A DNA stretch of 64,000 bases. Source: Octopus vulgaris. Lineage: Eukaryota. The DNA lies in contig OX597829.1 of the NCBI GenBank assembly GCA_951406725.2, positions 32,922,001 through 32,986,000 of the forward strand. Reading direction: 5' to 3'. The translations under genes and the position numbers were made by a program. Positions 27,005 to 29,405 of this stretch are shown one piece after another; position 1 is the stretch's first letter; each line of letters starts with the position of its first letter. The notes under the pieces were generated by a model that saw only the letters and a program-made list of their open reading frames with translations, searched no databases and was not told the origin of the DNA.

Positions 27005-29405
27005 TGTCCCACATTCATTGTGGTTAAAGTACAGACATGACCTATCAGAAGACTTCTATTACCAGGCCCAACTGCATCATACCTGCTTGTCTGCTGAAAA
27101 TGAATTCATTTACAACTGTGCTTTCCTTAACATAGAGAACAAGACTGTTTCTGTGGGAGGTAATACCTTACCTACATATGGGCTGCCACAATCATTGCAC
27201 CATGGGACACCTTCAATACCAACAGAGTTAATATGTGAAACGTCTTATGACACTGAAGCCCTTAATCAATACATCCAGCAAAATGAGCCCAAACTTCTGC
27301 CTGAGCAACAGTGAGCTTACAGTACCATCTTTGACCACATGCAGAAACGAAAAGGGGGTATTTTTTCTTGATGCACCTGGAGGGACTGGAAAAACGTTCG
27401 TTATTCAGCTTCTCCTTGTAAAAGTAAGGCACCGAAATGACGTAGCCGTAGCTGTGGCCTCCTCTGGCATTGCAGCAACTTTACTGCCCGGTGGCAGGAC
27501 AGTGCACTCAACCTTTAAGCTACTTTAACATCACCAAAACGTGTGAAAACGGCTTGCTTCTCCGGAGTTACCAGCTGATAATTTGGAATGAATGCACAAT
27601 GGCCCACAAGCGATCCCTTGAAGCTCTCAACACCACTCTTGAAGACATCAGAGACTGTCCCGCTATGATGGGTGGTATAACTCTTCTCCTGTCTGGCAAT
27701 TTCCCAAAGGAACCAGGGAAGATGTAATCAGGGCCTGCCTAAAGTCCTCACCCCTGTAGCAAATGTTACAACATTATCTCTCAAAACAAACATGAGAGCA
27801 CAGCTTCGTGGTGACCAGATGGCATCAGATTTTGCATATGACATATTGTCAATCGGACAGAAAACAGAAAACTGTCACTAACTCACCTCTGATGTATTAT
27901 CAGTAATTCCAATGAACTAGAGGCACATGTCTTCCCAAATCTACAAAGGAACTACCTTGACATGAATTGGATTTCAGAAAGAGCCATTTTGGCTCCAAAA
28001 AACAACACAGTGGCCACTCTCAATGCTAAGCTGCTGCTTTTGCTTCCGAGAAGGCTGCACATGTATGGGTCAATCAATTCTGTACCCGACAATGACCAGG
28101 CAGTGAGCTATCCAGTGGAGTTTCTTAATTCCCTTGACTCACATGGCCTGCCTCCTCATACACTGGAAGTAAAAGTCGGAGCTCCTGTCATGCTGCTGAG
28201 GAATTTAGACCTTCCAAAGCTTTGCAATGGGACACACTTGGTTATTAAGAAGGCTATGCAGTTTGACCCTATGGACCCAATCAGCCGAAAGTCTGGCTTT
28301 TCCAGATTTTTTGAGGATGGCCGGGTCTAGGTATCTGGTGATGCTCGAGGGATGCCCACCCCCAAGTGTCACCTGTGCCTAGAAACCAGCCACATCAAGA
28401 AAAACTGCCCCAATGACCAAAATAGGGTCCTGGAGCAGTTAATAGAGGCATCACTCCCTGCTCCCTCATTGGAGGGAGAGGAGGAGGAGGATGTCGAGGA
28501 GGTGGAAACCTCCTCAAAAAAACGAAAGTGAAAGGTGGGCAACAATGGTTGCCCACCAAAAGACCCGAGGGCTGCGGGAGGAAGGGAGAACCTGCTGGAC
28601 ACAGCAAAGAAACACCACCCTCCCACGGCCCAAGGGAAAAAGAAAAAAGAAAAACAGGAGATTGCCAGCAGTTTGTGACATGCTGCCAGCATATCCCGAT
28701 GCTTCTTCAGTGGATGAGCCGCTGCAGGAGGAATTTGTTGTCCTCTTCCATAAGGGAGGGACATTGCAAAATGCTATTAGTAAAATTGAAAGGAAGGGCC
28801 GGTGGGGCTTCTGTCCCGCATAGAGGACCCTGAGTGGCCTTTGCAGGTGGCTGCGGAGGTCATATGAGATAACGATTTGTGCAGGATAATGAATTCCTTC
28901 CCAGCGGACTCTTTTAGATATATGGCCAAGGCTTGGAACCGACTAGATGCTTCAATGAAGCAAGGAGCCTGGCCGGACAGAAAAATTGAAATGTGGGACA
29001 ATTGTGTAAGAAGTGTATTACCTCAAAATATTTTGTTGAATATATAAAGTAAGATGATTATTGCCTCATGTGTGCTCCTGTACCTACTGAACTGTGAAAG
29101 AGGTTTATTGCCTCATTTTGTGATTCTAAAAAAGAACAATGTTTTAGAGAAGCGAAAGTCGGCGGGCGCTTTACATCTTCTCCCATTCTCATCATCCTTG
29201 TATCATTATCATTCATTCCATTAATGTCTGTGTCCAGCTCGCAAACTTCTTTGTGCGCTACCCTTGTGGCAAATTTAATAAAATAAAGAAGGCTATGCAG
29301 TACGTTCATGAAGTCACCATTTTGTCTGGCTGTGGCAAAGGAGAGGACATTTTCATCCCCAGAATCCCCCTCATTCTATCTGGTGCAGATGTTCCCTTTG
29401 CATTT
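27005..29405 (+). pseudogene. Helitron PIF1-type helicase remnant, interrupted at 28263-29285
   Basis: FFLDAPGGTGKTF, VASSGIAATLLPGGRT, WISERAILAPKN, VMLLRNLDLPKLCNGT; resumes after the TSD with TILSGCGKGEDIFIPRIP. Confidence 0.85.
28263..29285 (+). mobile_element. 5'-truncated ORF1-only retroposon, unit G, with 16-bp TSD
   Basis: aagaaggctatgcagt at 28247-28262 and 29286-29301; starts mid-ORF; conserved 3' end and A-rich tail. Confidence 0.9.

Follow-up and report, generated by a model that had tools for sequence, protein, structure and literature searches.

The closest described systems are Tx1 of Xenopus, which lies in Tx1D, and Tx1-Mar of crocodilians, both APE-type LINEs found at a fixed site of an abundant repeat; the non-autonomous SINEU passengers share the site of Tx1-Mar, and their tandem insertions sandwich a 16-bp duplication (parts of PMC4494074). 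Fidelity is incomplete in that system, with 313 of 347 SINEU-3 copies next to the target (same parts of PMC4494074). Precise insertion by APE-type LINEs with loose endonucleases was posed as an open question in parts of PMC1919474, where the R1Bm endonuclease is given a consensus of only 5 nt despite its precise insertion; for R2Ol, parts of PMC6530143 report that efficiency is raised by read-through annealing.

We studied an arrangement of the same kind in Octopus vulgaris (genome size 2.8 Gb): an autonomous APE-type LINE sits at a fixed site in the head of an abundant SINE, and a family of non-autonomous, ORF1-only passengers shares that site and forms tandem insertions around short duplications. 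The window referred to throughout is the whole 64,000-nt stretch of DNA analysed; one of the passenger copies in it lies outside the SINE, in a decayed helicase (Table 1). We regard it as probable that this copy is an off-target insertion made through target-primed reverse transcription (TPRT) with the enzymes of an autonomous Tx1-like LINE that reads a short core, Y/AAGWAG (the first slash in each motif marks the insertion point), and that a second step favours the SINE.

Table 1 Features of the helicase insertion and of the SINE-site arrays in the window
Positions	Strand	Feature	Remarks
10746..17473	+	Array at SINE target, AAGT type	Three ORF1-only units with 15-16 bp duplications between them, inside a split SINE head
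27012..28246	+	Decayed Helitron-type Pif1 helicase	Portion upstream of the insertion
28247..28262	+	Left target-site duplication, 16 bp	Its final 1-5 nt are shared with the element through microhomology
28263..29285	+	5'-truncated copy of the ORF1-only Tx1-like retroposon	1023 bp
28263..28924	+	3' part of ORF1	Broken (frameshifts, stops); includes the CCHC zinc knuckle region
29241..29250	+	Tail motif, A-type	Complement of the top strand at the AAGA-type SINE target; one base is mismatched here
29264..29285	+	Fixed 3' terminus, without poly(A)	Common to 297 family copies; the autonomous LINE has an almost identical end
29286..29301	+	Right target-site duplication, 16 bp	
29302..29409	+	Host helicase	Portion downstream of the insertion
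34564..37346	+	Array at SINE target, AAGA type	Two units inside a second split SINE head

The 16-mers on both sides of the insert were identical and could not be extended in either direction, and 0.07 matches with up to two mismatches were expected by chance in the 64,000-nt window. The insert aligned with four other units of the window from the middle of ORF1 to a common 3' end, had its start near residue 133 of an intact ORF1 segment (374 aa) and was 82-92% identical to the closest relatives compared. The first-pass annotation had read it as a 5'-truncated copy with a perfect 16-bp duplication; the truncation and the exact repeat stand, but the true duplication is 11-16 bp because of microhomology at the 5' junction (1 nt if the register is kept strictly, 4-5 nt if one T is allowed to slip). 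At the 23 off-SINE sites of the family described below, duplications measured 10-20 bp, 16 bp being the commonest length (11 sites).

Removal of the insert and one duplicate gave an open frame across the site, in agreement with the initial reading that a Helitron helicase frame is restored: the rejoined frame carried a Pif1 2B domain (PF21530, E 9e-18) and was 39% identical to the helicase of a Helitron elsewhere in the window. This Pif1-family helicase occurs as dispersed decayed copies; of the two, only the Helitron elsewhere showed the Helitron N domain. Searching with the flank to the right of the insert returned 11 matches; eight paralogues were inspected, and all seven close ones had a single uninterrupted site, two of them with the identical 16-mer. 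Since the close paralogues are empty, the helicase copy is a real single insertion and its site is not a recurrent second target. A check for polymorphism in the fragmented contigs of four runs gave one joint across the insert, which could derive from a paralogous helicase. Elsewhere the window contained a 1071-aa open frame of an endonuclease-RT retrotransposon of another kind (19571-22786), a 244-bp inverted repeat (38980-39482; 97% complementary, 15 nt apart), a 340-bp tandem repeat (62089-63256), and other decayed LINE, Helitron and mariner-like frames spread over its length.

Full units of the passenger family measured 2.0-2.5 kb between duplications and had one ORF of about 375-400 aa with a CCHC knuckle, without ORF2; among 112 ORF1 copies scored, many were stop-free over a wide range of identity. 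The knuckle matched with an E value of 1e-3, just below the Pfam cut-off. The N-terminal half of ORF1 reached an ESM Atlas score of 0.90 to the cluster of the ZCCHC3 RNA-binding domain, which we take to be connected with the ORF1 of Tx1; PF23057/8 was not called by Pfam. The sole database homologue of ORF1 was a protein of Octopus sinensis; within the O. vulgaris genome, ORF1 was homologous to the ORF1 of Tx1-like APE-RT LINEs (E 1e-32 and 3e-20). Because it was only 27% identical to the ORF1 of the helper LINE (see below), the family is not a recent deletion product of that helper. Another ORF1-only family, with 1.7-kb units, five in a row, and a different terminus, was present in L203 and in L166 (8640-9200), which suggests repeated origins of ORF1-only passengers within the genome.

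The 3' end of the family was a fixed terminus ending in AATRAAATA, without poly(A) or a variable simple-repeat tail, and a genome-wide search with one terminus pattern gave 297 exact matches; a first look had yielded 1444 candidate 3' ends. The A-rich tail that had been cited as a TPRT hallmark is therefore a terminus common to the family and not poly(A). Slipped repeats of the terminal AAATA unit, seen occasionally at several junctions, are compatible with reverse-transcription starts, and inserts from less than 50 bp to full length shared the one terminus, i.e., 5' truncation was variable. Tail-to-tail inverted insertions and one 5'-inverted copy were also observed (L170, L297, L125); 5'-inverted copies are known for twin priming. 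At two of 30 loci a young Tx1-like LINE of another family was nested in an ORF1-only unit (L172 2870-8175, G000:C7; L174/L210), in one case within ORF1 and in the other within the 3' part, with the same first six bases following it each time; this may reflect a hyperparasite preference.

About 90% of the 297 family 3' ends (~267-270) adjoined one site in the SINE head, 27 rows being clearly non-SINE and three uncertain; 150 rows were examined directly and 147 only through filters at flank positions 10, 11-12 and 15, and arrays inflate the SINE-site count. The head is presumably of tRNA origin, and Rfam and ARAGORN searches with it gave no match. The share exceeds the 20% of flanks in one repeat that PMC4494074 takes as target preference. 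Copies at the SINE site were often arrayed, with 15-16 bp duplications between units and up to seven units per array, and the second unit of the AAGA-type array in the window was 86% identical to the helicase copy. A second SINE with a Tx1-like tail (L231-L260; 293 genome matches) inserts at the same base of the first SINE head and also in its own head.

Ten stretches with array units of divergent ORF1 were fetched as candidates for the autonomous element. In seven, a LINE about 5.45 kb long occupied the SINE site between copies of the duplication found there, and an eighth contained a partial ORF2. In the L355 copy an intact frame of 1140 aa encoded an APE endonuclease, an RT and, C-terminally, a zinc finger (PF03372, PF00078, PF13966), and the last 20 nt of the LINE nearly equalled the passenger terminus. 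Domain order and target preference suggest that the LINE system is Tx1-like; none of the 120 homologues listed bore a Tx1 name. LINE ends of the AAGT type adjoined AAGTAG in 69 of the 69 listed, and a separate filter recovered two off-SINE cases (L372, L375). At AAGAAG sites we found decayed LINE relics (L389, L404 and probably L395), i.e., decayed pieces only and no intact AAGA-type helper. The helper of the helicase copy was likely this older AAGA-type lineage, because the copy has an AAGA-type tail. Truncation, duplication, a family without ORF2 and an autonomous LINE that shares both terminus and site all agree with the earlier proposal of target-primed insertion in trans.

Other candidates for the helper were rejected. 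The abundant Tx1-like family nested in L172 ends differently, and of 30 copies not one lay at the SINE site; a second abundant Tx1-like family adjoined other repeats in the 29 of 30 loci where its end was visible, and the target of an 84% relative is a tandem repeat. Junctions with another terminus numbered 293, and all 30 loci inspected proved to carry the second SINE. For inserts ending in poly(A) at the SINE site there were 18 matches, and no LINE was seen in the 90 nt examined. The genome contained an abundant Tx1-like LINE, many of whose 1132-aa frames are intact and which forms tandem arrays of 5.26 kb where a fixed site of another repeat is occupied (L299-L334), and a further Tx1-like family at one site of a tandem repeat of ~340 bp (L205-L209).

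The sites used outside the SINE were compiled in a logo of 23 non-SINE insertions for which both duplicates were found, a small and partly hand-curated set that includes one LINE copy (L372) and one copy of a sister family (L381). Left out were loci with SINE head or body in the flank (L069, L100, L121, L128, L129, L157), one with a possibly decayed SINE (L108), those with very short or unclear duplications (L131, L132, L156, L364), duplicate loci (L382 and the second L120 row), and rows with no findable left duplicate (L113, L115, L116, L119, L122, L123, L124, L127, L374, L375, L377, L024), most of which entered only the base-4 test (see below). Position -1 was C in 12 sites, T in nine and A in two (Y in 21/23). 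It was followed by A at +1 (20 of 23) and +2 (18), G at +3 in every site (p 1e-17), A, T or G at +4 (13, 8 and 2; W in 21/23), A at +5 (20) and G at +6 (13). Positions 7-10 were near background, positions 7-9 being unfiltered in the searches; the filters excluded SINE-like bases at 10, 11, 12 or 15, so that these columns are biased and were left uninterpreted.

The consensus of the off-target sites is thus Y/AAGWAG, likely the part read by the endonuclease, and it extends beyond T/AA. This bears out the relaxed specificity around AAGWAG that the first-pass annotation had proposed, with a logo of non-SINE sites as the check; sites lacking any consensus past T/AA, the result named there as refuting, were not what the logo showed. 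Of the motif T/AAG(T/A)AG-CT given there, AAGWAG was recovered; the strict T at -1 was not, nor was the trailing CT, which occurred at 7-8 or 8-9 in 2 of 23 sites against 2.7 expected. The full motif fits the helicase copy alone among the 23, and its CT is therefore a chance extra resemblance. The Y at -1 lies beyond the primer and points to a protein contact, whereas +1 to +6 are the last six primer bases, so that protein reading and RNA pairing are both possible there.

The 7-nt core is too short to explain the usual accuracy of insertion at the SINE. In 200 kb of evenly chosen background, ~24 of 73 T/AAGWAG sites, about a third, were SINE heads as judged by eye, and a core matrix built from the off-target sites predicted a SINE share of 3% there. 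As this falls short of the ~90% observed, a second, non-additive determinant beyond the endonuclease core likely raises SINE use. The earlier idea of a trans-acting endonuclease that recognises the site is supported for mobilisation in trans and not for the enzyme as sole determinant.

An endonuclease that by itself reads a longer site, from about -8 to +15, through many weak contacts would do without any RNA or tethering step, stray sites being those that keep the strongest contacts. The Tx1L and TRAS1 endonucleases read ~10 bp (parts of PMC1919474), weak enrichments at -6 (G or T in 21 of 23 sites), -4 and +8 match the SINE, two helper lineages (AAGA and AAGT) would account for base 4, and families without the tail motif within 125 nt of the end (L402, L403, L410, L412, L406) still use the site. 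We nevertheless think this rather unlikely, as C, the SINE base at +7, was present in 3 of 23 sites and a wide additive matrix (-8 to +9, +13 and +14), noise included, predicted a SINE share of 20% in the same background, ~37-fold lower odds than observed. With n = 23 the set is small and many weak positional preferences are compatible with it, the wide matrix lifting the prediction from 3% to 20%.

The tail motif of the passengers offers another candidate for the second determinant. As a built-in guide it would pair over 8-11 nt with the top strand of the target, open the duplex and free the primer, so that RNA helps to choose the site. Tail motif type and target base 4 agreed at 68 of 71 SINE-site junctions, and both LINE lineages had the matching motif variant ~80 nt before their end. 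Away from the SINE, tails of the T type were found with T in 7 of 7 cases and A-type tails with T in 2 of 23 (p 2e-5; a curated test that includes sites with the 3' junction only), an agreement not caused by the supply of SINE targets, because these sites lie outside the SINE. Against a guide stand five exceptions (T-type tails in the AAGA sites L388, L396 and L407; A-type tails at T in L112 and L360), the families without the motif, and the fact that tail type also marks lineage and era, so that the motif is fully confounded with the helper enzyme. Pairing of the motif in cis, with read-through RNA, is just as feasible. In folds of the tail with the read-through the pairing formed and was no more stable than in shuffles (z -0.06 to -1.85), and at +1 to +6 differences of the right duplicate pointed four times toward the consensus and five times away, leaving no trace of read-through copying. 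A role of the tail as guide is hence quite improbable. Its fuller version, in which an APE-type LINE and its passengers use a 3'-tail RNA guide, the enzyme reads Y/AAG, the tail pairs with the next 8-11 bases and one guide-base change from AAGA to AAGT followed the host SINE, we also hold to be unlikely; if true, target choice in a LINE would be programmed by RNA and could be redirected through edits of the tail.

Most off-SINE copies had A-type tails (23 vs 7), and the older A-type lineage may have been less strict in its target choice. ORF1 itself has, at 35315-35325 of the window and in homologous places, a stretch of 11 nt that matches the AAGA-type target and has C at -1; no insertion at it was seen among the junctions examined.

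Alternatively, polymerase III factors or an element inserted earlier could tether the machinery and so create the SINE preference, the endonuclease contributing the core only. Judged by sequence, an A-box-like stretch of the SINE head immediately precedes the site, arrays reach seven units, and ORF1-guided recruitment has been proposed for R1Bm (parts of PMC1919474). Most SINE copies are decayed, however, and tethering alone does not explain the tail motif; we consider it very improbable. Finally, an ordinary L1-type nick at TT/AAGA, a common L1-type site, with the resemblance to the SINE target due to chance, is hardly credible: the helicase site does read TT/AAGA, but TT at -2/-1 occurred in 2 of 23 sites, C was as frequent as T at -1, +3 was invariably G and poly(A) was absent, so that the L1-type preference for TT before the nick and an A-run after it was not seen.

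We thus favour a short enzyme-read core followed by a second step at the SINE. The anatomy of the insertion, the empty paralogous sites, the core consensus and the LINE that shares the passenger terminus and the SINE site were observed directly, and on these we base the following sequence of events. The helper LINE would mobilise the ORF1-only passenger in trans, nicking the bottom strand between Y and A; the RNA would be copied starting at its fixed 3' end, the top strand nicked ~15-16 nt further on, and the unfinished cDNA joined via microhomology. At the SINE, the second step would most likely consist of pairing between the element RNA, reading through into its own duplication, and the longer SINE site.

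A single stray copy such as that in the helicase is ordinary, and it is the off-target set that constitutes the useful result. The stray copies act as a natural specificity assay, in which a 7-nt core is separated from the remaining 40- to 270-fold SINE preference. Helper lineages and target variants come in pairs here, and these and the tail motif differ at one base only, so that models based on the enzyme, on RNA pairing and on tethering become separable. The system also bears on the use of LINEs as site-specific gene-insertion tools.

In the open literature we found no description of a SINE-targeting Tx1 system in octopus, though repeat databases (Repbase, Dfam), subscription journals and supplements may hold the families; term searches of parts of the octopus papers PMC13282606 and PMC12988792 gave no passage on it, and no off-target logo for Tx1-type systems was seen in parts of PMC4494074. 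The octopus target is a SINE head, whereas the targets of the Tx1 systems are a DNA transposon, an LTR element or a microsatellite (parts of PMC4494074). Unlike the passengers of the Tx1-Mar system as described in those parts, the octopus passengers are 2-2.5 kb long and retain ORF1, and their tail mirrors the target. In coding for ORF1 only they are similar to mammalian HAL1 (half-L1), a non-autonomous LINE derivative (parts of PMC5753468), with which they share an intact ORF1, the lack of ORF2 and independent copies with duplications; in contrast to HAL1, the family is Tx1-like and not L1-derived, site-specific and without poly(A). Lastly, the octopus system resembles R1Bm in combining a short enzyme consensus with precise insertion, and R2Ol in the help that annealing of read-through RNA would give (parts of PMC1919474 and PMC6530143); these two belong to other clades, have rDNA targets and were characterised by experiment, whereas in octopus we infer the second determinant.
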